Source of the DNA: Cyanobacteriota bacterium
GTDB taxonomy: Bacteria > Cyanobacteriota > Cyanobacteriia > Thermostichales > Thermostichaceae
Direction of reading: 5' to 3'
Assembly (NCBI GenBank): GCA_033764955.1
Contig: JANRIL010000005.1
Span: 1 to 64,000 of the forward strand
DNA length: 64,000 nt
The position numbers were made by a program, and so were the translations under genes. The notes under the pieces are model-generated. The model ran no database searches. It was not told where the DNA came from and saw only the letters and a program-made list of their open reading frames with translations. This document shows, piece by piece, positions 8,194 through 64,000 of the stretch; within the stretch, counting starts at the first letter, position 1; each line of letters opens with the position of its first letter.

Positions 8194-8204
8194 AGATCGA
8201 AAGA

Positions 8205-9156: not shown

Positions 9157-9291
9157 TCTTTAATATCTACCGGACAGAAATGATTCCTAGCGGTTAATAG
9201 CTACTTCGAATCATGGTTTTAGTTTCAATGGATAGATAGGTCCCCATGCTTTCCCAGGGCAGACGGATCTATTTTCATGGAGAATATTTCA

Positions 9292-9376
9292 TATAGTAAC
9301 CCCGTTTGCTCTGTGCCCCCTCTCCCGCAAGGAAAGGCGAACAAATTCCCTACACATCACACTTAGGGTCACTATG
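9292..9376. mobile_element. MITE, inverted degenerate copy 3
   Basis: Reverse complement CATAGTGACCCTAAG...TCCTTGCGGGAGAGGGG...GGGGTTACTATA matches copies 1 and 2. Confidence 0.65.
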
Positions 9377-9412
9377 GTGTAAAGATTATTATCGGTAGAG
9401 AGAGGTTGAGCT

Positions 9413-9892: not shown

Positions 9893-9932
9893 CCGCACTC
9901 CCCAATTAAGGGATCCGTCGATTACTCCTTTT

Positions 9933-10841
9933 TCAAGAGGCGGATCCGTCAGCATCCCCAGCTTCGATGTATTGATACGGCTCTAGGTGAATCGTGACCC
10001 GCACCGCCCCATACTGTTGGCGCAGCAATTGTTCAACCGCTTCGGTAATCTTGTGAGCCGTATCCACATCCATCGGTTCCACCACCATGTGCATCTCCAT
10101 AAAAACCATCTGTCCAATCACCCCCCGCGAGGTAATTTCGTGACAGTCCAACACCCCTTCAACCTGCATAGCCAATTTACGAATCGCTGTGGCTGGGATC
10201 GCCACGGTATCTGTTAAAAAAGGAATGTTTTCCCGCAGCACCTGCCAGCCGCTATAAAAGACAAGGATCCCAACCGGAAACGCCAGCAGTTGATCCACCC
10301 AAACCCAGCCCCACTGCACCCCCCACAAACCCAATAACACTGCCACCGTAATCCAGACATCGCTGAGGGTATGACGGGCATCTGCTAGGAGCAAGCGACT
10401 GGATAAGACTTTTCCCTGGTGGTGTTCATAAACCGTAACAGCAATATTCACGATCAAAACCCCCACCATTAACTTGAGGGTCAGGTCACTTACCTCGATC
10501 TGCGGATCTGTCTCAAAAAATCGTTCCACCGCCGAGCGAAGAATTTCTAGGCTAGCCATCCCCAGAAAAGCCGCTATTCCCAGTGCCCCGATCGCTTCAA
10601 ACTTGCTATGGCCATAGGGGTGATCTTCATCCGGTTCGGGTCGGGAAAAGCGTATAGCCAGCAGTCCCAAGATATTGCTAGCACTATCAGTCGACGAATG
10701 TAGAGCATCCGCAACCAAACTTAGGGATCCCGTCAACCCACCCAAAACTAGCTTCACCCCACAGACGGCAAGATTACCGATCAAGGTGAGCATCAGGACT
10801 CGTTGGACTTGGCGCTGGCGCTGAGCAGCAGTGGCAGTCAT
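9933..10841 (-). CDS. Cation diffusion facilitator (FieF-like)
   Basis: SLSLVADALHS, HPYGHSKFE, ADARHTLSD, VTIHLEP. Confidence 0.93.
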   Translation of the reverse strand: MTATAAQRQRQVQRVLMLTLIGNLAVCGVKLVLGGLTGSLSLVADALHSSTDSASNILGLLAIRFSRPEPDEDHPYGHSKFEAIGALGIAAFLGMASLEILRSAVERFFETDPQIEVSDLTLKLMVGVLIVNIAVTVYEHHQGKVLSSRLLLADARHTLSDVWITVAVLLGLWGVQWGWVWVDQLLAFPVGILVFYSGWQVLRENIPFLTDTVAIPATAIRKLAMQVEGVLDCHEITSRGVIGQMVFMEMHMVVEPMDVDTAHKITEAVEQLLRQQYGAVRVTIHLEPYQYIEAGDADGSAS

Positions 10842-10933
10842 CGGTAGTGGCTCCCTGGAGCAACAGTCATCAACGAGATGATCGTAATCCAGGGTCGCAA
10901 CCAGAATCGTAGCGATCGAAGGAGCCAGGAGGA

Positions 10934-11824
10934 CTAGACCAGGTTAAAGGCAGTTTTATCTTTGAGAAACTCCTGCATAGCCTCAGGATCCTTAATTTTG
11001 AGGGCAATATCGGGCAATGGGGATCCCTGCTCAATGTGATAGATAGATTCGGAGTTGACGGTACCAAACACATAATCCCAGAGGCAGGTGATATTGCCAT
11101 AGTTACCAGGGCTGGCAAAAGGCAGGTGGTGATACTGATGGTGCAGGGGGATCCAAGGCAACCATCCCCCCAGACGATGGTTAAGTCGGGTGAGCCACGG
11201 TAACGGATCAAAGCCGAGGTGAGAGCCAAAATTTCCCACCAGCTTAAAAATGTGGATCAAGAAAATGGAAAAATATAACCCCTGACTCAGATAAATCACA
11301 AACACAATCATGCCTGATATCGCTGTCAAATGGATAAACGGAGAAGCCGCCACCACCAACGGATTGAGAAAAACATAGTTGTGATGGACAAAATGCCCAA
11401 ACGGAAATTTGTTGTAGAGCAGCGAAACCATGTGGTTGAAGCGGTGCGCCCAGTAGTCGGTAAAATCTACCCAATAAAATCCGATGATCGCCAACCCAAT
11501 ATCTGTCCAACGATTGGCCGAATGAACAACCACCCATGACTCAGGAACCTGAAAAAGCAGGGTTGGATGACCGCTAAATTGGATCCCCAACAGATATTGC
11601 AGGAGGCTAGTTCCCATCCCCCACATAAACGGGATTTTCCAGTTCAGGAGAACGGTTTGGAAGTGCACCTCTGGTTCAGGGGTTTTGAAAAAGCCAAAGC
11701 GCTCATGGATCGGCAAATAATGCCATGTTGCATAAAAAACCAAGTATCCCCCTAGCCAGAAGATCCCTGATAAAAAGCAATGTTTGCTTAATTGCAGCAG
11801 TTCCAGAGTTAGGGAGGGGTTCAT
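10934..11824 (-). CDS. Sterol desaturase/fatty acid hydroxylase family
   Basis: His boxes HRFNH, HFVHH, HHQYHH; NYG..WD.VFGT. Confidence 0.85.
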   Translation of the reverse strand: MNPSLTLELLQLSKHCFLSGIFWLGGYLVFYATWHYLPIHERFGFFKTPEPEVHFQTVLLNWKIPFMWGMGTSLLQYLLGIQFSGHPTLLFQVPESWVVVHSANRWTDIGLAIIGFYWVDFTDYWAHRFNHMVSLLYNKFPFGHFVHHNYVFLNPLVVAASPFIHLTAISGMIVFVIYLSQGLYFSIFLIHIFKLVGNFGSHLGFDPLPWLTRLNHRLGGWLPWIPLHHQYHHLPFASPGNYGNITCLWDYVFGTVNSESIYHIEQGSPLPDIALKIKDPEAMQEFLKDKTAFNLV

Positions 11825-12190
11825 CTGCTTATCTCTGATATAGCGTTGGTGGAGGAAGTTAGGGCACTTCGACTCATTAGCTTGTTGCAAAACTTTGTTG
11901 CGAATAAAACTCTCCTGAGAGGCTTATTCTACGGTAGGCATTCTCAATAAAATCTAAATTTTTCGAGAGGTTCTTTACTGAGTCCGGTTATATGATACTT
12001 CGTGAATGTATATGTGAATGTATAGCTGTATGCTTCTGGATTCCTAAATTTTGGCACTTGCCGATCTCAAAGCAGCCATTGACGGTCTTTCACCCACCGC
12101 CTTACCCACAACCTGAGAAGGCTAACGTCGGGATCCGCTTTAACTCCGATTTTTGCGTAGCGGATCCCGGTTTCCCAATTGGTCAGATCA

Positions 12191-12541
12191 CTAATTTTGC
12201 CAATTCTCTAGGCTGCTCAGGCTGAGGGGGATCCATTCTCCGGTGTGAGTTAAGCCCAGAAGCATGTCGGATTGAGCCGCAATCACTTCACCCGTTAAAG
12301 CACAACATTCAGACTGACGGGCGGTGGCGGGTATGGTAGCGCGAATATCGGTTTGGCTGTGGCGGGCGGGCAAATCAAGGGAATGATGATAAACGTAATT
12401 CCACAAAACCTCTCTCACCAGGGCTTGATAGCCTTGATCTCCTGCTAGCACTTTCAGCCGATCCTTCAGTTCCCGTTCCAGGCGAATACTGGTTACTTCC
12501 ATCTCAGTAGTAGAAGTCTTGGGGGCGGTATAGGTCATCAT
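12191..12541 (-). CDS. Ribbon-helix-helix (CopG-like) protein
   Basis: TSIRLERELKDRLK..GYQALVREVLW; GGAG RBS. Confidence 0.7.
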   Translation of the reverse strand: MMTYTAPKTSTTEMEVTSIRLERELKDRLKVLAGDQGYQALVREVLWNYVYHHSLDLPARHSQTDIRATIPATARQSECCALTGEVIAAQSDMLLGLTHTGEWIPLSLSSLENWQN

Positions 12542-12678
12542 GACGAATCTCCTTAAAAAACAGTCGATACCTGTAGTATCAGTGTAGTATGTCCTGGGGA
12601 GATGTAAAGGCAGTCATGAGGATTTCTACGCCAAGCATGGATGGATCCCTGCTCATCCCCTGGCTCTCCGCCATTAGG

Positions 12679-12990
12679 TCAAGGGGTCTGGCCAAGGGAT
12701 TGATAGTGCAGCACCTGAGGGGGCTGGGCAAAATAGGAACCAATCAAACTCCGCCATTGCTCAAATTGAGGGGATTGTCGGAAATTGACCAAATGAGCTT
12801 CTAGAGAGTCCCAATAGATTAGTAAAGCATATTGATGGGGATCCTCTAGGCAACGGCGCAGATGGTGGCGACGATAGCCCTCAGTTTGGGTGAGATAAGG
12901 AAAAGCCTGAGCAATGGCGACCTCAAAGGCGGCTGTTGTCCCAGGCTTAATTTCAAGAATGGCAATTTCTAGTACTTCTAACCGGTTCAT
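12679..12990 (-). CDS. Antibiotic biosynthesis monooxygenase family
   Basis: LEIAILEIKPG..FE, WDSLEAH..FRQS; start reassigned to ATG 12990. Confidence 0.85.
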   Translation of the reverse strand: MNRLEVLEIAILEIKPGTTAAFEVAIAQAFPYLTQTEGYRRHHLRRCLEDPHQYALLIYWDSLEAHLVNFRQSPQFEQWRSLIGSYFAQPPQVLHYQSLGQTP

Positions 12991-13000
12991 GGGTGCCTGT

Positions 13001-13726
13001 TCATGTGTGCAGTCCACATTCGGTTTTGCCTTTGCCCTGCCAGCGACCCGAGCGGGGATCCTCACCGGCAGCAACGGCGGCGGTGCAATGAATGCAACCA
13101 ATGCTGGGATAATTTTGGTCGTGCAGAGGGTTGTAGGGAACTTGCTCCGCCACAATATAGTCCCAAATTTGTTGATGAGTCCAGTCGGCTAACGGATTGA
13201 TTTTGATCAGGTTGCGTTTGGCATCCCACTGCACTTTGCCGATGGCGGCACGAGTGGGGGCTTGTTCCCGCCTCATGCCCGTGATCCAAGCCTGGTAGCG
13301 TGCCAGGGTGCGGTTGAGGGGTTCGACTTTGCGAATACCGCAGCACAGGTCAGGGTTGCTCTTATAGAGTTCGGGCTGGTACTGAGCCGCCTGTTGGTCG
13401 GGGGTAAGGAGGGGAGAAACCGTCTCTAATTGCAGGCTAGGATAGCGCTCCTGAATGCGAGCTTTCAGGGCTAGAGTTTCGGGAAAGTGAAAGTCGGTAT
13501 CCAAAAAGAACGCTTGGGCTTTTGGCTGGATGCGGCTGAGCATGTCAATCAGCACCACATCCTCAGGGCCAAAGCTACAGGCTAACACCAGCTCCTGCCC
13601 AAAGGCTTGGCTGGCCCATGCCAGAACCTCAAGCGGACTGGCGGCTTCAAATTTTTCACTAAGGGCTTCGACTTGGGGCTGATAGTGTTGCGACAGAGAA
13701 CGAACAGTATTGAGTACGGCGGTCAT
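13001..13726 (-). CDS. cysH: Phosphoadenylyl-sulfate/APS reductase
   Basis: SFGPED, LDTDFHF, CCGIRKVEP, SIGC..CT, RSGRW, ECGLH. Confidence 0.95.
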   Translation of the reverse strand: MTAVLNTVRSLSQHYQPQVEALSEKFEAASPLEVLAWASQAFGQELVLACSFGPEDVVLIDMLSRIQPKAQAFFLDTDFHFPETLALKARIQERYPSLQLETVSPLLTPDQQAAQYQPELYKSNPDLCCGIRKVEPLNRTLARYQAWITGMRREQAPTRAAIGKVQWDAKRNLIKINPLADWTHQQIWDYIVAEQVPYNPLHDQNYPSIGCIHCTAAVAAGEDPRSGRWQGKGKTECGLHT

Positions 13727-13880
13727 GGTGATCGTTGAGTCGGTTTGTTAAGTCAGTATATTTAATCTACCTTATTTCGGTCGGGATTAAGGTGTTTAGA
13801 AAAATTTACAACTTTAGGCGCGGCGGGAGTGGCAACGGAGGGATCCCCTGCCGAGGACGGGAGCAAAATGCGCAGAAGGG

Positions 13881-14810
13881 CTAAGGCAACGAGATGAGGG
13901 GCAGGGGAGAAGTCCAAGCGGCGGGGATGCGGATCCGTTTCTCGCCCCGCCGATCCCACGGTTTGCCCATAACCAATCCATGCCAAAGGGGTTGTGGGGA
14001 AGCAGATAAGGCTTGAACGGGATGCCAATGGTAGCGCAACCAGCCGTAGTCTCCTCCCGAAGCGAGGGCTAGCTCGATGACCCGAAATGCTGAAACAGGG
14101 CCAATCAACGCCGGAGCCACCAGATAGGGAATGTGGTGATGCAGGGTTACCTTGGGAACATGCAAATGACCGGATAGCACTGCCGCGACACCGCCGTGGG
14201 ACTCTAACAAGCGCCGGAGGGAAAGGGCGATGTCTGGTAAAACCCGATACTTGCGATAGAGGAGGGGCGCGAGAGGGGGCTGATGGATCAACAAGAGGAT
14301 CCATTGGTGGGCATAGGTGGTGAGTTGTTCCGCCAGCCATTGCAATTGCCCAGGTCGCAGGAGACCCTGGGGATCCGGGAAGGTACCGATGCTGGCATCA
14401 AGCGCAATCAGCCGCAGACCGGGTGAAGGGGAGAGGGAATAGTCCACATATCCGGTGGGAGCCAGATCAAAAGCGAACTGCTGCCGACACCACTGCACAA
14501 ACTCGGAGCGATCAAACCGTTGCCGCCGCCGCAAGGTGTCGATGTCGTGGTTGCCGACGCTCAGGTAATAGGGCACGGATAACTGACTGACTATCTCCTG
14601 GAACTGCTCAAAGCTGGCGGGATCCGCTTGATCCACCAAATCTCCCGTAAACACCACAAAATCCAGATCGGGGATCCCTTGCAGTTCCGCAATCGCCTGC
14701 CGAAGTTGGGTGGCTGGAGCCTCCGACATCCACCAACAACGACAGCCCGTGGGGGGCATGAGGTGAATATCCGACAGGTGAGCAAACTTGATGGAACGGC
14801 CATTTAGCAT
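13881..14810 (-). CDS. Metallophosphoesterase (Icc/CpdA-like)
   Basis: SDIH, TGDL, GNHD, SGHLH. Confidence 0.88.
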   Translation of the reverse strand: MLNGRSIKFAHLSDIHLMPPTGCRCWWMSEAPATQLRQAIAELQGIPDLDFVVFTGDLVDQADPASFEQFQEIVSQLSVPYYLSVGNHDIDTLRRRQRFDRSEFVQWCRQQFAFDLAPTGYVDYSLSPSPGLRLIALDASIGTFPDPQGLLRPGQLQWLAEQLTTYAHQWILLLIHQPPLAPLLYRKYRVLPDIALSLRRLLESHGGVAAVLSGHLHVPKVTLHHHIPYLVAPALIGPVSAFRVIELALASGGDYGWLRYHWHPVQALSASPQPLWHGLVMGKPWDRRGEKRIRIPAAWTSPLPLISLP

Positions 14811-14925
14811 AAGTTAAGATCCTTCACACCTCACGAGCGCATCATAAACAAAACTTCACCCTTCGCCTAGCACACTTCTCTTAACCTGACAAACCCTCGG
14901 TTAAGTGGGGCAGGGATCCCCAGAC

Positions 14926-14984
14926 AAAAAAGCCCCAACTGGTGAGGAGCAGCGGGGCAGAGGAGGATGTTTATTTTCCCTACC
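14926..14984 (-). ncRNA. Putative small RNA with CU-rich motifs and intrinsic terminator
   Basis: -10-like TAGGCT, then CATCCTCCTCT, hairpin GCCCC..CTCCTCAC..GGGGC and a T-tract. Confidence 0.35.
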
Positions 14985-15152
14985 TGTTTAGCCTAGAGGG
15001 TAGATATGACAGCCGTGTGTCAGGGATGTGTGGATGAGGTGAGAACCTCAGGGATGAGGGACACCCAAGCCAACTGAAAAACTGGCACAGCTCACCACGC
15101 CTTCTCTCGGTCTTTTCTCTAAGGTTAAGGATGTCTGCTCTCCCCAAATGGC

Positions 15153-53319: not shown

Positions 53320-53367
53320 CTCAGCACCAGATGCTCTCAACCGTCCGCTGCCTTTGAATGGTTAGGC
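53320..53367 (-). other. Truncated attC (R''/L'' half only), distal array boundary
   Basis: TCAACCGTCCGCTGCCTTTGAATGGTTAGGC matches the corresponding half of attC 57855-57941; the other arm is absent. Confidence 0.7.
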
Positions 53368-53411
53368 TATGTCGCTTAATCGCTTGACTTTGTTCTGGTG
53401 CATTGGGATTG

Positions 53412-53891
53412 TTATGGGGAGGAATTTCCCAGTGCTTTCCGGAAAATGATTTTGTCGTCTCCAGCCTTGTAAAATTCTCGAATTCTCGCTTCCTCGTCAT
53501 AGCCACTTTTGCGGTAAAACCCACGAACGTACTCAAATTCCTCCAGTCCGGACGTTTCTACCAATAGCACACGCTCACCGTACTTAGTCAGCATTTGCTC
53601 AACATGGTTCAACAAAGCCGCTCCACGTCCCTGTCTTTGGTAGTTGGGATGAATAGCGATTAAATGGAGAGTCCACGTTCCCTCTGTCATACGTTCTGGT
53701 GCAACGTAGGCAACACCCACTAGCTCATTATCGTAGTCGCTAAACCACATACCTTGGCTGTCTGTTTCATCACTGAAATGCTGGTTTAGCATTTGAGCCA
53801 GTTCTTCAATTTGATTTGACTCGAAAAGTCCAGTCGCCTCTGCCAAAGCAAGTAATGCATTCGTGTCATCGGGCGTAGCCAGTCGAATCAT
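53412..53891 (-). CDS. GNAT acetyltransferase (cassette 7)
   Basis: IAIHPNYQRQGRG, LLVETSG, FY.K.GY. Confidence 0.9.
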   Translation of the reverse strand: MIRLATPDDTNALLALAEATGLFESNQIEELAQMLNQHFSDETDSQGMWFSDYDNELVGVAYVAPERMTEGTWTLHLIAIHPNYQRQGRGAALLNHVEQMLTKYGERVLLVETSGLEEFEYVRGFYRKSGYDEEARIREFYKAGDDKIIFRKALGNSSP

Positions 53892-54056
53892 AATGAGTTC
53901 TAGTCAAGGCTTATACTTTTGCTTTCATTATTCAAGCACCAACATTAAAATCCTCCATTGCCTCAATAAGAAATTCCTGAGATATTTGGAGCTAACAGAT
54001 AACCTTTTAGCTACCGCCCCAACCGTTGATTTAAGCCGGATAAGATATGTATTAAC

Positions 54057-54141
54057 AGCGTTGCCCATTACCCGCCGCAGAGAACCTCTGTCTGATAACT
54101 GACCAATTTTCAGCAGTCGGCATGCATGGGTATGGTTATGC
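54057..54141 (-). other. attC, degenerate
   Basis: R'' GCATAAC at 54135-54141, CCCAT/ATGGG arm pairing; R' corrupted. Confidence 0.55.
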
Positions 54142-54192
54142 ACCGATCGCCTACGGACGGCTACTACAACAATGGGATCCCATTCTCAATGC

Positions 54193-54636
54193 TCATGAAT
54201 TGGATCGCCCTAGATCGAATAAGAACATCACATGGTCGCTTGGTGGTTCTGGACTGCCAATAGTTGCATAAAGGCTCATCGCTGCCGTATTATCGCGATC
54301 GGTCAACACCCAAGCGAATTCACAATTTAACTCCCGTCCTACCATAAGTATTGCATTCATCAATTGCTTCCCGATACCTTGCCGCCGATAGTTTTCTGCA
54401 ACACCAATTTCATTAATCCACAGTTCTGGACAAGGCTTGTCAGGATGAACATAATGAACAGCTGATACAAACCCGATGACAAGATTGCCATCAGTTGCGA
54501 CACCTAAATGGTGGCGAGGATCGCCGAGAAACTCAATAGCTCGTGGGATATTGATTGGGTGATCGAATACATCCGGATCGACGTTTTTGAGAATATCCAC
54601 ATCGCTGTGGTTGAGAATTTTGATTGTGATCGCCAT
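54193..54636 (-). CDS. GNAT acetyltransferase (cassette 6)
   Basis: WINEIGV...RRQGIGK, N.AA..LY. Confidence 0.88.
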   Translation of the reverse strand: MAITIKILNHSDVDILKNVDPDVFDHPINIPRAIEFLGDPRHHLGVATDGNLVIGFVSAVHYVHPDKPCPELWINEIGVAENYRRQGIGKQLMNAILMVGRELNCEFAWVLTDRDNTAAMSLYATIGSPEPPSDHVMFLFDLGRSNS

Positions 54637-54713
54637 AGTATCTTCTATGTAGATTCCCCTCACTTTAATAGATTATGGCCGATTCCCTGGCTCAGTCATC
54701 CATTGGACGAGCT

Positions 54714-54801
54714 GCATAACGTTCCGGTTGAGCGGCTGCCGATAACCTTTGCCACCTTACTAATCAACTTTATTCAGTCCGCTCCAACCGGGCTGGCAGG
54801 C
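54714..54801 (-). other. attC with mutated R''
   Basis: R' GTTATGC intact; arms GGTTGGAGCGG/CCGCTCAACC pair; R'' reads GCCTGCC instead of GCCTAAC. Confidence 0.8.
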
Positions 54802-55181
54802 ACGCTTCGCCGCCAAGATATAAAAGTCAAAACCCAATACAAAAAGCCAACCAGACCGCCGCCATAAATAAGACCTAAAGATAGCACCGAGTTAAATGTA
54901 TAGTCTGGGTGATGTTCCAATAACTTGTGTAGCCCAGCATGAACTATAAGAAATGTAGTAAATGCAATCCGTGACCAGTGCCGAATACTTAGAGATTCGT
55001 TATTTGTTAACCACAGGAGTGCTGCAATCAATGGTATGTGAATAACCACAAAAGTAAATGATGCAATATGTTCAGGCAAGCTTCGTAGTATAAACAGCAA
55101 TCTCCATTCTGATTGCGTCATGGCATCAAGTTCGTGAGTGATGAGCGTCGCAAAGCCTAAGTGAAAAAGCAGGTTCCCCAT
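54774..55181 (-). CDS. Small membrane protein (DUF6713-like) (cassette 5)
   Basis: THELDAM..EWRLL, HIPL, HAGLH; four TM segments. Confidence 0.7.
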   Translation of the reverse strand: MGNLLFHLGFATLITHELDAMTQSEWRLLFILRSLPEHIASFTFVVIHIPLIAALLWLTNNESLSIRHWSRIAFTTFLIVHAGLHKLLEHHPDYTFNSVLSLGLIYGGGLVGFLYWVLTFISWRRSVPASPVGAD

Positions 55182-55272
55182 AAAATATTAGATTCCTCTG
55201 TTTGGACTTTACAACTGGGGGAGTGGCTAAGATTTTTACAAAGCATGATACTTCTCTATCATAAATTCTGCT

Positions 55273-55327
55273 GCCTAACGACCTAGCTCCCCACGCCCGC
55301 CAGATCAGGTGCAGCGCCTGGTTCGGC
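55273..55327 (-). other. Short GC-rich attC
   Basis: GCCGAAC CAGGC GCTGCAC...GGGAGC TAGGTC GTTAGGC. Confidence 0.65.
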
Positions 55328-55342
55328 ATGCCCACTACAACT

Positions 55343-55686
55343 CTAACTGCTTGGGCGATTGACGGGAATCAATTGTCCATGAAGATCAGGTATTGGCTGG
55401 ATTGTGTTGTGAATCCGTCTCGCCTGCCCTGTGAAGTCGGGATCAACGGTGCAGACAATAACGCGCCCGCATGCCTCGAATCCTGGTTATGCAGGCGGAT
55501 GAAGTCTCTCCGGTTGAGGGTCAGTACTGCTCGATCTCCCGAGATCGCGAGTTTAAGCACTTCAGGATCAGCAACTGCCTCGCTCGCTCTCCCTCGTTCT
55601 TGGATCGTGACCACGTCGTGTTCCAGAGACCGCAGCCCCTCAACAACCGGGATCGGAAAGTTCTCATTAGAGTACATGCGAGCCAA
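55343..55686 (-). pseudogene. DUF5615 PIN-like toxin, frameshifted (cassette 4)
   Basis: YSNENFP..HDV..LTLNRRDF..HAG; an extra GC at ~55464 shifts out VIVCTVDPDF..RIH..QLIPVNRP*. Confidence 0.8.
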
Positions 55687-55688
55687 GA

Positions 55689-55976
55689 CTACTCCTCTTC
55701 GTTCTCGCGGATCTCCTTCTCGATCTCAATCCGGTGCCTGGCAGCATACGACCATGCTTGGACAAGGTCAACAGCTCGCAGAGTGGGGTAGCTGCGAAGG
55801 ATGTCGATCTCAGAGGCTCCAAGTTGCCGCATTCGCTCAACCGTCCACACCGGGATTTGCGTGCGGATAAAGCGAGCCGCCCCACCACAGACGCTTGGAG
55901 TCGCAACGATCGAGGGGTGCTCTTGGGCGTGGTGCTGCGGAAGCCATCTGAACATGAACGGATGGAATGGGAGCAT
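55689..55976 (-). CDS. DUF433 antitoxin (cassette 4)
   Basis: TPSVCGG.A...TQIPVW..GAS..IL.SYPTL..L..AW.Y; N-terminus uncertain. Confidence 0.8.
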   Translation of the reverse strand: MLPFHPFMFRWLPQHHAQEHPSIVATPSVCGGAARFIRTQIPVWTVERMRQLGASEIDILRSYPTLRAVDLVQAWSYAARHRIEIEKEIRENEEE

Positions 55977-56121
55977 CTGCTACGAGAGAGCGAAGGTAAG
56001 TTCTTCGCTCTCAACTGGGTTCAGTTCAGCGATCTGAATCCATAATTCGGTTAAGCTTCAGCATAAATCTACCTGAGCTTCCGTGCTCTATTATCAGTCC
56101 GCCACAGATCAACGGAAAGCC

Positions 56122-56180
56122 ACCGAACGGTCGCGCTCACCCGCCGTGAGTCATCTATCACGCTCACAGGATTGTTATGC
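56122..56180 (-). other. attC, degenerate or chimeric
   Basis: R'' GCATAAC and R' GTTCGGT both match neighbouring cassette ends, but the arms do not pair well. Confidence 0.55.
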
Positions 56181-56209
56181 CGTTCGTAAGTGGATCTAAT
56201 TAGACGTTG

Positions 56210-56641
56210 CTAACTGAGAGCAGGTGGTGCAAGACTTGGTGCAACTTCTGGATTGGGCAAAGCAGGTAAAGGTTCTTCAGAAGTTGGCATATCAAGATGC
56301 TGTGTGTAAATCACTTGATAGAGTTGGGGTTCTGACTTAACCACAAGCCCTTGAAGACGCTGCAAATGATCAGCAAAACCAGGGCTATTTCGCATCGCAA
56401 CATAATCTTCCACAGAGGTGAAGTGAGCATAGTTAGCTGCCCGTGTGCGATCCAGACTAACGTGTAAATTAGCTGTGTAACCACCTGGGAATTGACCCTT
56501 TAATCGCTTATACTCACTAACCTGTGTAGCGACAAATTGTTCCGTCTTATCAGGATTAAGTGTAAATATATTGATCAGTACAATGCCATTGCCGACGTGA
56601 ATAAGGTTAACCGGAAATCCATTTTCTAACTGTATGTCCAT
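56210..56641 (-). CDS. ABM-like monooxygenase/dimeric barrel protein (cassette 3)
   Basis: LINIFT..P..Q, PG...ANLHVSLD..RAANYAHF. Confidence 0.75.
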   Translation of the reverse strand: MDIQLENGFPVNLIHVGNGIVLINIFTLNPDKTEQFVATQVSEYKRLKGQFPGGYTANLHVSLDRTRAANYAHFTSVEDYVAMRNSPGFADHLQRLQGLVVKSEPQLYQVIYTQHLDMPTSEEPLPALPNPEVAPSLAPPALS

Positions 56642-56664
56642 AAATCTACTCCTGCGATACTAGC

Positions 56665-57402
56665 TTATAGAATTCCGCCATTGACTTGAATTGTTTGACC
56701 ATTGACCCAACGAGCATCATCAGATGCCAGAAATGCAACCACATCTGCGATATCAGTAGGCTGTCCAAGCCGTCCTAGTGGAGTTGATTGGATCAACTGG
56801 TTTAAGGCATCAGCAGGCATAATTAATCCATCCGTTTCAGTAACGCCTGGTGATACCAAATTCACAGTGATACCCCGATGCCCTAACTCTTTAGACAGGG
56901 CAAAACTAAATTGTTCGATCGCAGCTTTACTAGCAGCGTAGACTCCTCCCATCGGAATACTTTGCTTGGTTGCACCACTAGACAGGCTAATGATGCGTCC
57001 ACCATCACTAAGATGCTTTGCCGCTTCTTGCAAGGCAAAAAATGTTCCCTTAGCATTGGTGTTGAAGACCCGATCGAAATCAGATTCAGTCATGTCAATT
57101 GTCGGTTTGTAAACAGATACGCCGACATTGTTGACTACGATATCAACTTGACCAAATATGTCGAGAATCTGAGCAAATAGATTTCGGGTATCTTCAATAC
57201 GACTGGTGTCTGATTGAATCGCGATCGCTTGCACTCCATTGCTCTGAATGCCAGCAACTACTGCTTCTGCTTTTTCTCGGTTGCCTGCATAGGTGATTGC
57301 AACTTTTGCACGCTCACGCCCCAATCGTTCGGCGATTGCTCGCCCAATCCCCCGCGATGCGCCCGTAACCAACGCTACTTTCCCTTGCAATGAAGACATC
57401 AC
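56665..57402 (-). CDS. SDR family oxidoreductase (cassette 3)
   Basis: TGASRGIG, VNNVG, YAASK, PG.TET. Confidence 0.93.
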   Translation of the reverse strand: MMSSLQGKVALVTGASRGIGRAIAERLGRERAKVAITYAGNREKAEAVVAGIQSNGVQAIAIQSDTSRIEDTRNLFAQILDIFGQVDIVVNNVGVSVYKPTIDMTESDFDRVFNTNAKGTFFALQEAAKHLSDGGRIISLSSGATKQSIPMGGVYAASKAAIEQFSFALSKELGHRGITVNLVSPGVTETDGLIMPADALNQLIQSTPLGRLGQPTDIADVVAFLASDDARWVNGQTIQVNGGIL

Positions 57403-57473
57403 TTTGTTTCCTTATTCTGAAACACTGAAATTGACCAATAACAAGGTATGCTTTTACTGATTTTTTGGGAAGT

Positions 57474-57491
57474 ACTTACTTTTTTGTAAGT
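57474..57491. promoter_or_regulatory. HxlR-type operator palindrome
   Basis: ACTTAC-TTTTTT-GTAAGT between the divergent sdr and hxlR-like genes. Confidence 0.6.
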
Positions 57492-57517
57492 CCCTATTGC
57501 TCATCAGGTATAAAATC

Positions 57518-57850
57518 ATGCAGCCAGAGCAAAACGACGGCACACTATTTGTACAGGCGACACTAAAAGTTCTGGGTGGAAAGTGGAAGCTTTTAATTTT
57601 GTGGCATCTAAAAGATTCAGCAAAGCGGTATAGCGAACTGAAGCGCTTAATTCCTGAAATCACTGAAAAAATGATGATCCAGCAACTTCGCGAACTAGAA
57701 CAAGATGGAATTATTAGCCGTAGAATGCTTTCAGATATGCCACCAAAAGTCGAATACGCTTTCACAGCCTATGGCATAACGCTCATACCCATCTTTAAGC
57801 CCTTGTGCGAGTGGGGGCAAGAGCATCTAAAACGTATCAGTACTGATTGA
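57518..57850 (+). CDS. HxlR family regulator (cassette 3)
   Basis: LGGKWKLLIL, RYSEL, QLRELE.DG, PPKVEY. Confidence 0.92.
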   Translation: MQPEQNDGTLFVQATLKVLGGKWKLLILWHLKDSAKRYSELKRLIPEITEKMMIQQLRELEQDGIISRRMLSDMPPKVEYAFTAYGITLIPIFKPLCEWGQEHLKRISTD

Positions 57851-57854
57851 GACA

Positions 57855-57941
57855 GCATAACGGCTCAAATCAGCGGCAGCAGACAACCTTTACGACTCTA
57901 CCAGGGGCTTTCAACCGTCCGCTGCATTTGAATTGTTAGAC
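57855..57941 (-). other. attC (intact, 87 bp)
   Basis: GTCTAAC...AAATGCAGCGG/CCGCTGATTT...GTTATGC with extrahelical bases. Confidence 0.9.
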
Positions 57942-57996
57942 ATCGTTTAACCTGTAGTATCTTTACAAGGGTTTGAATAACAACTCTCGTCAAACA

Positions 57997-60588
57997 TCAT
58001 ACTTGCACTTGCTGCTGCACCTGTAAAGATGCTTGAGCTTGGACAAATGAGTTGTAAATAGCAATTTCCGAGTTGACAATCTCAAAACTAATAGTTAAGG
58101 CGTAAGGTACTTGAGCAGTTAAATCATTATTCCAGCCTTTATGCGCTACAATCGCTATACAGAAGGTATCTCGCAAGTCGAAAGATTTGACTACTGCCCA
58201 ATCTTTTTGAATTGTTCCAACTCCTCTGGAGGTATCCTTAACTCGTCTACTATGATTTTTTTGCTGCCCAAGCGTCCAATCGAATAACCCCGATCCATCT
58301 TCTTGATCTTCAGAGGCTTCGTATTTTTCAAGAACCCTAGCTAGAAACTTATCTGGTGATTCTTCTTTTTGGCTACATTCCCAATGTAACCAAGTAGATA
58401 AATATTTACGTTTGTTGCGTCGTGTTCGACGTGGTTCAGCTTTGTAAGAAAGCGTAATCTCAACAAGAATATCAAAAGCTTCTGCCGGAGACTGTAGCTC
58501 CTCTGGAATAATTACTTGGTAGATATGTGCTTGCCGCGCTCGGATGAGACTGTCCCCATTAGTAATCAATGTCACACGGTTAGGTGCATTACCAAGTGCA
58601 CGTTCAAGATTGGGCAAACCATATCCCATCATACGAATGGCTGGTGAAAGATCGAGTTCATTATTTGTCCATGAAGGTAATCGTGCTGACTGCACAATCA
58701 AAGCTTTATAGAGCAAACAGCTTTCCTGAGGAAAATTAGATGCTAATGCTGCTGCAATATGAGTAACTTTAGGTGCTGCGAAGGAAGTCCCTATGCTATC
58801 TGCTGCGATCGCTGGTGCTCCCCCCATCGTTGTCCGTACTAACTCAGGGCAAACATCTTTAGGTGTAGAAAAGCTGGGTGGATTTCCTTCATCCTTAACC
58901 CAATCACCTCCATATTCAACGACTTCAGGTTTTATCGAATCCCAAATGCCGTAGCCTGTGCAAGAAAATGCTGAAGGATAATCTTGTGATGCTACAGAAG
59001 TGAGAGGTGGATTATTGTAGGTGCAGTGAGCAATTGATCCCACTGTTAAAGCTTGAAAACTTTGAGCAGGATTCGCGATACGAGACGAATCCTGCAACAG
59101 AAAGTTTGGATATGTACATCCTTTTTGGAAATATTCTGTGAGCGTTCCACGAGTGATACTAAGCCCTACACCTCGCCCTCTAGGAAGGTTTCCTGCTGAA
59201 ACAATAAATAGAATATCGTTTAGCCATGTAAGGTAATCTATTTCAGCCGCCCAAGCACTCATGTAAGTTCTTCGACAAGGTGCAGAACTATTAATTGAAT
59301 GATTAAAGATGCGAGTGCCTGTTTGACCATGATAGAAATCCACAATGTACTTTAAGACATCTGGCATGTATAGTTTGTCCGGAAGCAGGCAATTCTGCCC
59401 TAAAACTCTAGCGTTCTGAAGCCAACAAATTGCCCTCTGTCGTCCAGTACGTGGAACTCCTTGAGGATATAAAACTGCTCCAGCGACTCGGGTGCCATGA
59501 CCACCGTCTGATACACGGTCTATTGTTTGGTCAGTCTCATAAGGAATCCAAGATCGCGAGTTAATACTATCTATAGCAACATGCAATAAGCGGTGACTTT
59601 CTTGAATACCACTGTCAACGATGCAGATTTTTGGAGCCAATGGAGATGGTGGATCAAGGTTAAAAGAGGATTGGTCAGGTGTTTCTAAGGTGCGCTCGAT
59701 TAATGGCTCAGCGGCCTGTTCTCGCTCTATGACCTCAAAAACATAGGGATAGTTCGTAACTAAATCTTTCAAACCCTTGCCAGAAATTTCGATCCGGCTA
59801 GAGAAGCTGTCAGGCAGCAGTGCAAGATGCGAACGATCATCATGATCACCAAGCAGAAGAAAATTTCCACCAAGATCTCTTACAAAATGTTCAAAATCAT
59901 TTTCTCTATCAAGTTGCAGCCTTTCCCATTCCTGTAAGGTTTGGTCACGCCTATCAGTCCATCTAGCAATCCTATGAGCATACCTCTCAGGATCTTCATT
60001 CTCATCTTGACGAGGGTAGTCCGAAAACCTAGAATTTAGGCCGACACAGGCAATACTGACATCAACCGTGTAAGTTTGACCATCTAGAATCTGATCCCAC
60101 TTAGAAAGTAAATCTGGTGAAAGAATATATTCTAGACGCTCAAACTTACCTTCTAGAATTTCCCAGATCTCAGCGACCTTCCCTCCGCCATGTTCTTCAG
60201 CAATAAACTTCTCGATTTTTTCCTGAAGTTTAGTCAACTCAGCATCAGCCGAAGCACCAAGGATATAGCCATCCTCAAGCTCAAGAATAACTTCGATACC
60301 AAAGCTCTTGAGGGTGTCTGCATCAAATGATTTTGGATCTACTTGAAGCAGAAACGAAGGAAGATTTGGAATGTCTGGCATTCCTTCTTGCTGACGTTTC
60401 TCCAAGGTAGCCTTCCAATCAGAAATAATTGATGATACAGAAGACTTAAGCCTCCCACCATGTCCACCTGCATCTCCTCGATTGGCATTAGAGCGATCAG
60501 ATCGCCGGGGTGGCCTTCCAGGACGTGCAAAATCTGTTTTTGTGAGTCTTAGTGGAATGTGCTTGAATTGTTCCGATCGCTCAGGCAT
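57997..60588 (-). CDS. S8 subtilase-family serine protease, IetS-like (cassette 2)
   Basis: Triad IVDSG / HGT / GTSFAAP, SAGN oxyanion; 8-bp overlap with the ATPase. Confidence 0.9.
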   Translation of the reverse strand: MPERSEQFKHIPLRLTKTDFARPGRPPRRSDRSNANRGDAGGHGGRLKSSVSSIISDWKATLEKRQQEGMPDIPNLPSFLLQVDPKSFDADTLKSFGIEVILELEDGYILGASADAELTKLQEKIEKFIAEEHGGGKVAEIWEILEGKFERLEYILSPDLLSKWDQILDGQTYTVDVSIACVGLNSRFSDYPRQDENEDPERYAHRIARWTDRRDQTLQEWERLQLDRENDFEHFVRDLGGNFLLLGDHDDRSHLALLPDSFSSRIEISGKGLKDLVTNYPYVFEVIEREQAAEPLIERTLETPDQSSFNLDPPSPLAPKICIVDSGIQESHRLLHVAIDSINSRSWIPYETDQTIDRVSDGGHGTRVAGAVLYPQGVPRTGRQRAICWLQNARVLGQNCLLPDKLYMPDVLKYIVDFYHGQTGTRIFNHSINSSAPCRRTYMSAWAAEIDYLTWLNDILFIVSAGNLPRGRGVGLSITRGTLTEYFQKGCTYPNFLLQDSSRIANPAQSFQALTVGSIAHCTYNNPPLTSVASQDYPSAFSCTGYGIWDSIKPEVVEYGGDWVKDEGNPPSFSTPKDVCPELVRTTMGGAPAIAADSIGTSFAAPKVTHIAAALASNFPQESCLLYKALIVQSARLPSWTNNELDLSPAIRMMGYGLPNLERALGNAPNRVTLITNGDSLIRARQAHIYQVIIPEELQSPAEAFDILVEITLSYKAEPRRTRRNKRKYLSTWLHWECSQKEESPDKFLARVLEKYEASEDQEDGSGLFDWTLGQQKNHSRRVKDTSRGVGTIQKDWAVVKSFDLRDTFCIAIVAHKGWNNDLTAQVPYALTISFEIVNSEIAIYNSFVQAQASLQVQQQVQV

Positions 60589-61624
60589 GAGAAGCTAAAA
60601 CGTCTTGAATTGATTCTTCTAGATGCTCTTGGATGACTAACTCTTCTCGATCCAGAATGGCTCGTTTCGCAGCATCTTGGGCAACCCTGACAACCTGTGC
60701 AGCAGAGAAATTGATCATCTTCTGAATAATCGAGTTCCAATCGATTGAGCCAACTTCAACCGAAGAGAGTGTCTGCTTCAGGATAACCTCAATTTCTCGC
60801 TCTGTCGGTTTTGGCACTTCAATAGCATCATCAAATCTTCGCCATACAGCTTCGTCTAGAAATTTAGTTAGATTAGTTGCAGCAACAAGCAAACCATTTG
60901 AAACCTCGTACTCGTCAAGTAGTTGAAGGAACGTGTTGACTACACGTTTGATTTCACCAACTTCCTGGCTATCTTCACGGGACTTAGCAAGCGCGTCACA
61001 TTCATCAATAAAAAGCAAACAAGGCGATGCAGCAGCTGTTTCAAATACTTCACGCAGGTTGGTCGCAGTTTCTCCTAAGTATGAGGATACCATTGCATCA
61101 AAGCGAACCTTGATCAAGGTTAAACCTGTGTTCCAAGCAATCCGTTCGGCTCCCATCGTTTTGCCGCACCCTGGAGAACCATAAAGTAAAATCTTTTGGC
61201 GATACCGTAAACCATGATGAGCAAGCCGATCACGAGCAGCATATTCCCGTTCAATACGGCGGAACCGTACTTCCACAGCATCAGAAAGGATCATATGATG
61301 CCGCAAATTCTCACGGGGAATCGTAACAATAAACGGATGATTGAATCTATGCTTGCTCGATAAGAGGGTGAGAGAGCGTGTGTCAGACGCTTTTGCAGCT
61401 TTCTCTAAGGACGCTGAAGGATTTGCTCGTACAGAACCTGATGATGATTTTTCAGATTTGGCAAGATTGGTGTTTTTCCGCAGAATGCCTTCGAGTTGGC
61501 TAGCAAGATTGATATGCCCTAGCTTGCGTTCTTCCTCTACTACGATGGCCAGCATACTCTGTATCGCCCGTGAGTCGTCACTGGCAACAGCACGGAATAA
61601 ACGTTTTAGCACCTCTCCCTTCAT
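60581..61624 (-). CDS. AAA+ ATPase, IetA-like (cassette 2)
   Basis: GSPGCGKT, FIDECD, ATN..LD.AVWRRFD. Confidence 0.9.
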   Translation of the reverse strand: MKGEVLKRLFRAVASDDSRAIQSMLAIVVEEERKLGHINLASQLEGILRKNTNLAKSEKSSSGSVRANPSASLEKAAKASDTRSLTLLSSKHRFNHPFIVTIPRENLRHHMILSDAVEVRFRRIEREYAARDRLAHHGLRYRQKILLYGSPGCGKTMGAERIAWNTGLTLIKVRFDAMVSSYLGETATNLREVFETAAASPCLLFIDECDALAKSREDSQEVGEIKRVVNTFLQLLDEYEVSNGLLVAATNLTKFLDEAVWRRFDDAIEVPKPTEREIEVILKQTLSSVEVGSIDWNSIIQKMINFSAAQVVRVAQDAAKRAILDREELVIQEHLEESIQDVLASHA

Positions 61625-61744
61625 TCTTCGACCCGTCGCCCACAACCATACAGTTCCACTCTTACAATACCTAAACCTCCCGAAATCTTATGAAAACTTT
61701 ACAAAATTAAAATGTGTGCTCTTTGATTTGGTGTTGGCAATGAT

Positions 61745-61831
61745 GTCTAACGTTCCGGCTGAGCGGCTGCAAGTAACCTTTGCAACATAACCAGTATCTT
61801 TCAACAGTCCGCTCCAGCCGGGTTGTTAGCC
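61745..61831 (-). other. attC (intact, 87 bp)
   Basis: GGCTAAC AACCC GGCTGGAGCGGACTG...CAGCCGCTCAGCC GGAAC GTTAGAC. Confidence 0.92.
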
Positions 61832-61859
61832 CCTTGACTGGGCTTTGCTGAGCAGATCT

Positions 61860-62255
61860 TTAAGCAATATGCCTAAACTCAAATTCTCCATTTACAACCT
61901 CAACTAAGATGATTAATCCACGCCCTACTGATTTAGCAAATTTGAGAGCCAAGTAAGCTTCTACAACATTTTTACCAATACCTACAGAAAATGTGGCGAC
62001 TAATCCTGAATGGATTTTAATAAGCTTTTCGATAAAAGATTGGTAACTTTTCACTTCAACTAGAAGACTGTCACCTCCTTGTAAATATGTTTTCCCTCCA
62101 ACACTATCAGCGGCTAAGCGGATACTATCGACCGACTTATTAACGGAATGACTATATTCTATTAATTCATCCAGTTTATTAGATATGATCAGTTTTTCTA
62201 TCTTGCGACCTACCAGATCTCCATCAATAGCAACGAAAAAAGATTCTATAGTCAT
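61860..62255 (-). CDS. mCpol (minimal CRISPR polymerase, Cas10/GGDEF-like palm) (cassette 1)
   Basis: 131 aa; IDGD.VG, GGD, TFSVGIG..A.LAL..AK..G signature. Confidence 0.82.
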   Translation of the reverse strand: MTIESFFVAIDGDLVGRKIEKLIISNKLDELIEYSHSVNKSVDSIRLAADSVGGKTYLQGGDSLLVEVKSYQSFIEKLIKIHSGLVATFSVGIGKNVVEAYLALKFAKSVGRGLIILVEVVNGEFEFRHIA

Positions 62256-63268
62256 CGTCCTGAAAGCTTACTCCAAAATTCTTGACTAGCTCTTGCACAC
62301 CGGAAGCTTTCCAAAGCGAGATTAATACAAACTCGAACCTCATTAGCTTCAAACTTGTGAGATGAGATACCTGCATGAGCCGAAATATTTCTGAACATTC
62401 TCAAAGGTGTTAATAAGCCAGGAACCGTCAACACAGAATCTAAATTCTTATCAACGTAATCTCGGTTTCTGCTGCTTATCTCAGAGTATTTCCTGAAGAA
62501 GAAAGTGACTGCTCCCAGAGGGTCTTTTTGTTTCTTCAAATCAATATCGAAATCATTGGAAAATCTCTGTGCTGGCGGATAGTGCGTTAAAAAATCTAAA
62601 AGATCATTTATAAAAACCTCGCTTGAAGTTGTTGCATCCACTACTGCGCTGCGAAAATTGTCGCCTTGAAAAAAAGAGAATATACTTTTTCTCAAATCAT
62701 TACTTATTCTCTGAAGAAATGAACTTTCAGAAACCCCAGAAAATATTTTGTCAATTTCTTCAAGGTAAAAGATTAAGTCAAAATAGCTTAGCCGTGACAG
62801 ATCGGCAATTCCTGTAAATGGGGGTAGTTGAACATATTCATAATGTTCTCCCCAAACAGGTTCATCCGGTATTTCTCTTGGAGGAAACAATAGAGAGATG
62901 TAGTAAATATTTTCTATCTTTAGCAAACTTGCAGTGAGATAGAGTTGGGCAGTAACAGATTTTTGTCCATTGGTTAAGTCTACGTATTTAAGAGAATCTT
63001 CCTTGAAAACAGCAGTAAAATCTTCTGCCTTTCCAATTCCATCAGTGCTTAAGGGCACTTTTTCTATTCTTATTTGATTGCCTAAAAATGCTTCATATAA
63101 ATTGACCTGCTCAGTAAAAAGATTGTCCTTAAGAGCTTCAGACGAAGAGAAAAGGACAACTTTTAATATTGGAGTACTTCTATTTTTCTTTATCAAACTT
63201 TTTATAGTAATTGCTACAAGCCTAACTGTGTTAAGGTTTGTGTTTCCGCAAGTGTATAAAACAGACAT
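62252..63268 (-). CDS. CARF-HEPN effector (Csm6/Csx1-like architecture) (cassette 1)
   Basis: N-terminal VLYTCGNT and VDLTNGQK CARF motifs; C-terminal helical region with R-x4-H (RNISAH); ATGA overlap with mCpol. Confidence 0.78.
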   Translation of the reverse strand: MSVLYTCGNTNLNTVRLVAITIKSLIKKNRSTPILKVVLFSSSEALKDNLFTEQVNLYEAFLGNQIRIEKVPLSTDGIGKAEDFTAVFKEDSLKYVDLTNGQKSVTAQLYLTASLLKIENIYYISLLFPPREIPDEPVWGEHYEYVQLPPFTGIADLSRLSYFDLIFYLEEIDKIFSGVSESSFLQRISNDLRKSIFSFFQGDNFRSAVVDATTSSEVFINDLLDFLTHYPPAQRFSNDFDIDLKKQKDPLGAVTFFFRKYSEISSRNRDYVDKNLDSVLTVPGLLTPLRMFRNISAHAGISSHKFEANEVRVCINLALESFRCARASQEFWSKLSGR

Positions 63269-63345
63269 ACTATGCGCTCTGCACTCAATTTATGTTGATT
63301 CTGCCAATCATCTCTCAACTACGTCACAACAGACAAGGTGAAGGG

Positions 63346-63380
63346 GGCTAACTAGTTAGTATACGGAAATTTTCCGTATA
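63346..63380 (-). other. attI core with adjacent 21-bp palindrome
   Basis: GTTAGCC(CC) core complements the R'' of the first attC; TATACGGAAA-T-TTTCCGTATA at 63360-63380. Confidence 0.75.
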
Positions 63381-63398
63381 ACCTCCCATTTTAGGTTT

Positions 63399-63427
63399 AC
63401 TATACTGAAACTTTCTGGTTAACACAA
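63399..63427 (-). promoter_or_regulatory. Candidate Pc cassette promoter
   Basis: TTGTGT-N17-TATAGT pointing into attI. Confidence 0.35.
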
Positions 63428-63551
63428 CCATTGGGTCTAATATGCCGATTTATTCTGGGTAATATCCCCTAAAAGCGTGTTATGCCGAAATATGCATGGT
63501 TTTGTGGCAAGACTGATACTTAAGGCCAAAAAGAAGCAAGTAGAAATACTT

Positions 63552-64000
63552 ATGCCTTTGGGTGGAGAGATCCAGCCACCTAGAAAATTGCTTGATAGAG
63601 TCCGTGATGTGATTAGACTCAAGCACTACTCCTATCAGACTGAGAAAACTTATATACAATGGATTCGGCGTTTCATTTCGTTTCATAACATACGACATCC
63701 GACAGAGATGCGCGGTGCTGAGGTTAACTCATTTTTGACTCATCTTGCTGTCTCTGAGAATGTTGCAGCTTCCACTCAAAATCAGGCACTCTCGGCCATT
63801 CTGTTCCTTTATCGAGAGGTAGTCCACACTGAACTTGCTCTGAATTGGGATGCTGTTCGAGCTAAGCGTTCTCGATATCTACCCACGGTCTTGACTACTC
63901 AGGAAATTTTCTTGGTCTTACAACATATGTCGGGTGTTTACTCACTATTGACGAGATTGCTCTACGGTTGTGGTTTGCGTCTAAATGAAGCACTTCAGTT
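63552..64000 (+). CDS. intI: Integron integrase (partial, runs off the window)
   Basis: KLLDRVRDVIRLKHYSYQTEKTYIQWIRRF..FLTHLAV..VAASTQNQALSAILFLY..LPTVLT..LLYGCGLRL.E. Confidence 0.96.
   Translation, partial: MPLGGEIQPPRKLLDRVRDVIRLKHYSYQTEKTYIQWIRRFISFHNIRHPTEMRGAEVNSFLTHLAVSENVAASTQNQALSAILFLYREVVHTELALNWDAVRAKRSRYLPTVLTTQEIFLVLQHMSGVYSLLTRLLYGCGLRLNEALQ

Follow-up and report, generated by a model that had tools for sequence, protein, structure and literature searches.

The first cassette of an integron in a 64,000-nucleotide (nt) stretch of cyanobacterial DNA (contig JANRIL010000005.1 of assembly GCA_033764955.1, positions 1 to 64,000; hereafter, the window) carries two overlapping genes, which we assign to a 338-amino-acid (aa) effector composed of a CARF and a HEPN domain, and to a 131-aa mCpol (minimal CRISPR polymerase). 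We regard the identity of the two proteins as almost certain, and we have just as little doubt that the pair sits in a mobile integron cassette; that the module serves in defence is, in our opinion, quite probable. More tentatively, and at slightly below even chances, we propose that it represents a third type of Panoptes system, in which the allostery from CARF to HEPN would be reversed and the RNase would be freed by phage sponges or ring nucleases, and which would travel between cyanobacteria as a 1.6-kb cassette and guard the cyclic oligoadenylate (cOA) of a type III-B/Csx1 system. What is new here is the split, integron-borne form with a soluble RNase; a fused version of the family and defence cassettes in the integrons of Vibrio were already known.

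Judging from their homologues and from the conserved residues of their motifs, both open reading frames (ORFs) are real genes. They overlap by the four letters ATGA (mCpol ATG 62255-62253, effector TGA 62254-62252), and together they encode 469 aa of protein in a cassette of 1.6 kb (coordinates are given in Table 1). An earlier interpretation made from the letters alone (hereafter, the sequence-only reading) had reported these ORFs, their overlap and five motifs, and all of them are present. Rfam gave no match at E<=1 over 61600-63500, and a promoter and terminator scan of 61600-63700 returned 3 promoter-like sites against 4.9 expected, which leaves a promoter internal to the cassette unsupported.

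The 131-aa protein matches Pfam PF18182 (E 2.9e-20, 73.2 bits, cut-off 26.4) and NCBIfam NF033576 (59.6 bits, cut-off 40), and phmmer aligns it with the solved mCpols 9mnr (E 5.8e-12) and 9nwn (E 1.1e-11). Its AlphaFold (AF2) model, built on a 28-sequence alignment, has a confidence score (pLDDT) of 95.4, and Foldseek superposes this model on 9pd0 and 9mnr (both OptS of Panoptes) and on 9nwn with TM-scores of 0.77-0.87, root-mean-square deviations (rmsd) of 1.6-1.8 Å and 32-34% identity, the solved mCpols outranking adenylyl cyclases, GGDEF domains and Cas10 by far. The motifs are IDGDLVG (aa 10-16) and GGD (aa 60-62), and the metal-binding acidic residues are in place, with D11 and D13 in the N-terminal DGD and the G60-G61-D62 loop. 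The search yielded 21 mCpol homologues; across the 28 sequences G61 is invariant, and D11, G12, G16, G60 and D62 are nearly so (D11, G12, G60 and D62 being each at least 90% conserved). The loop that reads QGGDS in the window mCpol is QAADG in the OptS of type I Panoptes. Neither Pfam nor the two structural models revealed a further sensor domain in the mCpol or in the CARF-HEPN protein.

Two side observations concern this enzyme. The mCpols linked to CARF-HEPN proteins, whether cyanobacterial or from Firmicutes, share an additional beta-hairpin at their C-terminus (aa 115-129 here, window 61860-61920), which is missing from the two mCpols of the alignment that are linked to CARF-transmembrane (CARF-TM) proteins, and which may be a docking element. 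One homologue (P0119, 145 aa) has GGQ in place of GGD, and its N-terminus is translated, in a different frame, from the last part of the preceding gene; it is possibly a decaying mCpol copy.

The effector is hardly recognised by sequence libraries. No Pfam family matches it at E<=1, NCBIfam returns no Csm6/Csx1 match, and the profile of its family finds 0 matches among the sequences of the PDB. The AF2 model (pLDDT 88.6, 29 sequences) shows an alpha/beta domain (aa 1-150), corresponding to CARF, and an all-helical domain (about aa 155-337), corresponding to HEPN. The best structural match of the former is Card1 (6wxw, Z 13.6, rmsd 2.5 Å over 129 residues), followed by VC1899, Cdn1, Can1, Can2, Csx1 and Csm6 (Z 13.6-10 for aa 1-150); that of the latter is AF_0298 (2hsb, Z 9.8, rmsd 3.2 Å over 115 residues), followed by sacsin (Z 8.1), Roquin, and LsoA, RnlA and HEPN toxins (these last at Z 7-8). 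Z-scores of 7-9.8 are weak evidence for helical bundles when taken alone, and the HEPN call stands because R293 and H298 are invariant, N294 is near-invariant, and the RNxxxH motif is aligned in a fused family described below. At full length, the best Foldseek matches are Csm6 6tug (E 1.4e-6), Csm6' 8pe3 and Csx1-Crn2 8y6z. The effector motifs are TCGNT (aa 6-10), DLTNGQK (aa 97-103) and RNISAH (aa 293-298), and the residues invariant in all 29 sequences are D97, T99, N100, G101 and K103 of the CARF loop, together with R293 and H298. The protein has no hydrophobic segment (the maximum Kyte-Doolittle mean over 19 residues is 1.1). On this model, then, the 338-aa protein is a CARF plus HEPN protein of the Csm6/Csx1 type, a predicted soluble RNase.

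These results bear out the sequence-only reading as to both proteins, the mCpol palm enzyme (by PF18182, NF033576, the solved mCpols and Foldseek) and the CARF and HEPN architecture (by the AF2 model and its structural matches). It had also named Foldseek and PADLOC as checks: Foldseek brought both ORFs to known structures, those of mCpol and those of CARF-HEPN proteins (Csm6), and PADLOC matched the two proteins to its CARF_HEPN_mCpol model at only E 2e-6 and 2e-7 (2.3e-6 for the effector); its Csm6 and Csx1 models responded weakly, at E 0.005-0.04 (0.0047 and 0.041, respectively).

The association of the two genes is retained among relatives. The gene that comes next after the CARF-HEPN gene on its 3' side is an mCpol gene at 7 of 8 genome loci and at 5 of 6 metagenome loci; the two loci that lack it are cut by contig ends, and mCpol is thus present in 12 of the 12 relatives that can be judged (11 distinct loci, L003 and L043 being identical in sequence). 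The genome loci of the pair come from cyanobacteria and from Firmicutes (Clostridia and Bacillaceae); none of the relatives is on a viral contig and none on a plasmid. The ATGA overlap occurs at 5 of 12 loci, the window counted, and the remaining junctions, mostly short, vary between a 17-nt overlap at one extreme and a 78-nt in-frame gap at the other. The effector family comprises 31 clusters among 5.8 billion sequences (best E 2e-196), whose named members are all cyanobacterial, and 82 representatives at E<=1e-3 (42 at E<=1e-10) among 1.84 billion sequences.

Some of these relatives deserve a remark of their own. In a Clostridiales metagenome-assembled genome (MAG; L003:4480-4600, and likewise its duplicate L043) effector and mCpol share one reading frame with a lone TAG between them, and no ATG, GTG or TTG precedes the DGD motif of the mCpol. 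This implies either an arrangement one substitution away from a fused architecture, or readthrough or re-initiation, and the form split by a TAG may be an intermediate. In L002, which among the genomes holds the nearest relative of the cassette, the effector gene (L002:3440-4460) is cut short by a premature stop, 27 codons ahead of its expected end; the mCpol there is intact, and the stop may be an error of MAG assembly. Two effector relatives, P0023 (497 aa) and P0094 (470 aa), have a TIR domain at the N-terminus (Pfam TIR_2, E 1.8e-25 and 1.1e-27).

A search with PF18182 across 401 cyanobacterial genomes gave eight strong matches (E <1e-15), which fall into three architectures. In five genomes the three domains are fused in a single ORF, about 485-508 aa long (348 aa in one case, called from a later start), which is recognised by PADLOC as CARF_HEPN_mCpol at E 1e-147 to 6e-219; two have an mCpol gene followed by a CARF-TM gene, the architecture of type II Panoptes; the split pair occurs in one genome only, that of the window. 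The weaker match that we scanned (L019) is a Cas10, and the other weak matches were taken as Cas10s for that reason. The split CARF-HEPN family aligns with the fused proteins in hhalign (97.5%, E 6e-12, 300 columns, RNxxxH included), and the mCpol part matches them in phmmer at E 6e-9 to 1e-6. Given this homology, the window pair is a divergent split version of the catalogued fusion (PADLOC PDLC01967), with which it shares the domain order, the RN..(A/T)H and DGD/GDD motifs and a mainly cyanobacterial distribution, and from which it differs in consisting of two genes, in an identity of only about 21%, in the modest PADLOC values given above, and in residing in an integron cassette. In the literature, an mCpol fused to a Csx1-family ribonuclease is mentioned, not tested, by Gruschow et al. 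2026 (PMC13577387), and mCpols joined to HEPN RNases are likewise mentioned, not tested, by Sullivan et al.

The comparison with the characterised systems is instructive as well. Type II Panoptes (PMC13577387) is, like the window module, a two-gene operon of an mCpol and a CARF-domain effector that is found in cyanobacteria, whereas its effector is a membrane CARF-TM protein and not a soluble HEPN RNase, and the two cyanobacterial examples have the mCpol gene first where the window has the effector gene first. Type I Panoptes (OptS mCpol with OptE/2TM-beta; PMC12657218, PMC12657230) uses a cyclase of the same family and fold, but an effector with neither CARF nor HEPN, and its products are cyclic dinucleotides (PMC13434031). 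To Csm6 and Csx1 our effector is similar in its two-domain build, in the DxTNG variant of the CARF DxTHG motif and in the R-x4-H motif of HEPN; it differs from them in lying outside a cas locus, in its size (338 aa against about 350-540 aa for the matched chains), and in its presumed source of signal, a 131-aa mCpol in place of a Cas10 complex.

The integron itself is well delimited. The integrase matches TIGR02249 at full length with 451 bits (cut-off 265), and the N-terminal part that falls within the window does so at E 1.1e-49; since intI neighbours the housekeeping genes ilvD and lgt, we consider the integron to be chromosomal. The attC coordinates were obtained with a relaxed scan, which recovers both attC1 and attC2. 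The DNA of attC1 folds, at -16.8 and -20.1 kcal/mol, into an imperfect hairpin from which two bases of the + (bottom) strand bulge out, and its repeat family recurs at 57858-57939 and 54717-54800. The 5' boundary of the first cassette is defined by complementarity to the core of its own attC, and the second cassette follows the same rule, its (G)TTAGAC pairing with GTCTAAC. The two motif copies in the putative attI are candidate integrase-binding repeats.

Table 1. Coordinates of the gene pair, its cassette and the surrounding integron features in the window.
Feature	Position	Strand	Description	Basis
CARF-HEPN effector gene	62252..63268	-	338 aa, Csm6/Csx1-like predicted RNase	ORF list and model
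mCpol gene	61860..62255	-	131 aa, Cas10-like palm nucleotide cyclase, minimal CRISPR polymerase	Profile and model
attC of cassette 1 (attC1)	61745..61831	-	87 nt; R'' GGCTAAC ... R' GTTAGAC; the cassette ends at R'	
attI/cassette junction, 5' boundary of cassette 1	63346..63352	-	GTTAGCC, exact complement of own attC R'' GGCTAAC	
Putative attI	63353..63417	-	Two copies of a ~22-nt motif: CGGAAAATTTCCGTATACTAAC (63376..63355) and CAGAAAGTTTCAGTATAGTAAAC (63417..63395)	
Integron integrase gene intI	63477..64000, on to contig position 64532	+	351 aa, full length, divergent from the cassettes	
Second cassette	57942-61744		IetS 57997-60588(-), IetA 60581-61645(-), attC2 57855-57941	

That this cassette is mobile is borne out by the recurrence of its ends in three other contexts. 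In L002 (a MAG contig, 78% protein identity) the homology runs from GTTAGCC to that contig's own attC GTTAGAC, with unrelated DNA beyond; L042 (a metagenome contig, 81% identity) has the same cassette start, an attC after the mCpol gene, and an attI-proximal motif of about 25 nt in common with the window. Both match the window from the GTTAGCC heptamer on and differ from it upstream. Contigs from the sequencing runs X2 and X3, finally, which may be of RNA or DNA origin, can be aligned to 61745-63354 with 75 differences and one gap, and past both ends their sequence departs from that of the window. The cassette has a GC content of 37.5%, against 51.5% in the first 53 kb of the window. The integrase, the attC hairpin and these recurring ends all agree with the position that the sequence-only reading had given to the module, in the first cassette between attI and an intact attC. 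Separately, short contigs in runs X1-X3 and X12 match the attC (61745-61831) alone, with different DNA on both sides, and this type of attC therefore bounds other environmental cassettes too.

Compact defence systems between attC sites beside intI have been described in the sedentary chromosomal integrons of Vibrio (bioRxiv 10.1101/2024.07.02.601686), and neither CARF nor Iet, Panoptes or cyanobacteria occurs in the text of that work; in the present case the host is a cyanobacterium, and the array has four sites only.

An attC follows the mCpol gene at 3 of the 12 loci inspected, so that the module also exists outside integrons, and no IntI, IetA or IetS was found near the relatives L001-L008. 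This bears on the idea that the module would be an addiction element, with a nucleotide-restrained RNase selected for post-segregational arrest upon cassette loss and with phage defence being secondary or absent. The residence in an excisable cassette speaks for such a role, as do the reports that, among the "defence" cassettes of chromosomal integrons, those for toxin-antitoxin (TA) systems form the most frequent class and stabilise arrays (bioRxiv 10.1101/2024.07.02.601686), and that Panoptes has been likened to a TA system (PMC13434031). We nevertheless consider it improbable, as most relatives lie outside cassettes, as excision removes both genes (killing would then require that the RNase outlives both the mCpol and its product), and as the array is very small (of its attC sites, two are intact and two have decayed).

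The sequence-only reading had described the module as CRISPR-free. This holds for the window, in which a scan of 58 ORFs turned up no core cas gene, and for its contig, on which a crude repeat scan detected no array, but it does not hold for the genome, which has CRISPR arrays on contigs C11 and C30 and a complete type III-B system on C30 (locus 1646-15020), outside the window. The latter includes a Cas10b of 1046 aa with an intact GGDD, Cmr3-6, Cas1, a 556-aa Csx1-like CARF-HEPN protein and a CARF/WYL protein (two genes of the PDC-S03 family are interleaved with the cmr genes). Csm1 was not found in the genome, which is 89% complete.

One could thus imagine that the module is an accessory of type III-B, the effector mainly sensing cOA made by Cas10 and the mCpol merely tuning or priming it. 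The same genome does contain CRISPR arrays and a Cas10 that is competent for signalling (GGDD), and the fold of the effector CARF is near to sensors of cA4 and cA6 (cyclic tetra- and hexa-adenylate). We think that this is very improbable: module and cas genes are on different contigs, the type III-B locus has a Csx1 of its own, and the pair enters genomes without a clear Cas10 and always with its own cyclase. In the Panoptes-like scheme, the same type III-B/Csx1 system would have another role, namely that of the system guarded by the module, in line with a proposal made for type II Panoptes; Panoptes genomes are reported to be enriched in type III CRISPR (PMC13577387).

That scheme would work as follows. 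The mCpol, expected to be a homodimer, would produce a cyclic di- or oligo-adenylate at all times, as is reported for the mCpols tested so far; the effector CARF would bind this nucleotide, and the bound nucleotide would hold off a HEPN domain that is predicted to be a competent RNase. A phage that carries a sponge, a ring nuclease or a phosphodiesterase against cyclic-nucleotide immunity (in this host, the type III-B CRISPR-Cas/Csx1 system would be its target) would lower the pool, the CARF site would be emptied, and the HEPN dimer would cut RNA and arrest the infected cell. The ATGA overlap would couple the synthesis of the protector, mCpol, to that of the effector. The folds, the catalytic residues, the conserved gene pairing, the cassette and the type III-B system elsewhere in the genome are established by the results above; that the synthesis is constitutive, which ligand is used, in which direction it acts and what is guarded are matters that we infer, and as to the polarity, we consider the chances to be about equal that the nucleotide keeps the RNase off. 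We favour this inverse polarity because a sensor domain is absent, because the tested mCpols are reported to be constitutive, and because both characterised types hold their effector off. The constitutive product of type I mCpol keeps 2TM-beta off (PMC13577387), and a review describes the E. coli system likewise, with a constitutive product and the effector held off (PMC13434031); in type II, cyclic triadenylate (cA3) keeps the CARF-TM effector off, and three mCpols linked to CARF-TM proteins made cA3 in vitro from ATP and Mg alone (PMC13577387). An always-on cyclase combined with a ligand-activated RNase would be toxic to its own cell.

Several points weigh against this interpretation, and the reader should have them together. 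To our knowledge, all the characterised CARF-HEPN RNases among the fold matches (Csm6 and Csx1) are activated by their ligand, not inhibited by it. In TA systems the antitoxin gene usually comes first, and in the window it is the effector gene that does so. The second Asp of the Cas10 GGDD is Ser in our mCpol (GGDS). The window CARF aligns with that of the type II CARF-TM effectors with an hhalign probability of 0.2%; as the two are unrelated by this measure, neither ligand nor allostery can be transferred from type II Panoptes, and we do not infer the ligand from that system. The tie to type III CRISPR is not general, since among the genomes of five relatives Cas10 is clear in 2, weak in 1 and absent in 2 (the pair being found without Cas10, the module is therefore autonomous), and a cyclase of CBASS (SMODS) was not found in the genome at its 89% completeness. 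The literature searched contains no work on the function of an mCpol-HEPN system; the pairing is nevertheless less new than supposed in the sequence-only reading, which knew of no functional description of it in a cyanobacterial integron, since it is catalogued (PADLOC CARF_HEPN_mCpol) and mentioned in two papers. Finally, in their 2025 Nature paper, Sullivan et al. say of the regulation of HEPN effectors that its sign, negative or positive, "remains to be seen".

The polarity is thus regarded as open in the field, and this leaves room for a canonical activation, in which the mCpol would be silent until an infection trigger (a phage protein or a nucleic acid, for example), or until its release from inhibition by the effector, and its product would activate the RNase as cOA activates Csm6 and Csx1; the module would then be a miniature, guide-free, type III-like abortive infection system. 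The nearest structural relatives of the effector, being ligand-binding Csm6/Csx1 RNases (the PDB titles of the matched structures refer to ligand-bound forms), agree with such a scheme, and the C-terminal beta-hairpin of the CARF-HEPN-linked mCpols might serve in regulation or docking. It has to contend, on the other hand, with the lack of a sensor domain in both proteins, with the reports that tested mCpols are active on their own, and with the inverse logic of both characterised types of mCpol system, and we find it unlikely, though less so than the other alternatives discussed above. We keep the inverse, Panoptes-like polarity as our working interpretation.

The neighbourhood of the module may be described more briefly. 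The second cassette encodes a complete IetA-IetS defence pair (AAA+ ATPase and S8 protease; PADLOC E 5.9e-79 and 4.8e-56, both under the NCBIfam equivalog cut-offs), and it is flanked by intact attC sites whose cores fit the cassette rule. Taken together with the mCpol module, defence systems thus fill the first two positions of the integron. Of the four attC sites of the array, two are intact and two decayed, the latter being an attC-like site at about 54715-54800 without R'' core and a half-site at 53326-53365. The genes found among these decayed sites (53326-57854) encode an SDR protein, a weak DUF7347-like ORF, a DUF6713 protein and two GNAT acetyltransferases, and the whole segment looks like the fossil end of the array. 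Elsewhere in the window (1730-2326, - strand), a 198-aa protein matches the PADLOC family of CRISPR-"associated" 2OG proteins (E 1.6e-76), with no cas genes nearby.

We think that these findings matter in several respects. It is on the mCpol systems that the notion of "inverse" immune signalling was founded, and the effectors studied in them so far are all membrane proteins; the present cassette offers a compact natural test case of two genes, with clear catalytic residues to mutate. Should the RNase turn out to be inhibited by its ligand, the CARF-HEPN scaffold of type III CRISPR would be one that can be wired in both directions, and a metabolite would play the part of the "antitoxin", a logic which, if true, would also make the cassette addictive. 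Beyond the mechanism, a cyclic-nucleotide system is here seen moving as a cassette, beside a cassette for IetAS, and the idea of integrons as biobanks of defence systems extends in this way from Vibrio to the cyanobacteria.

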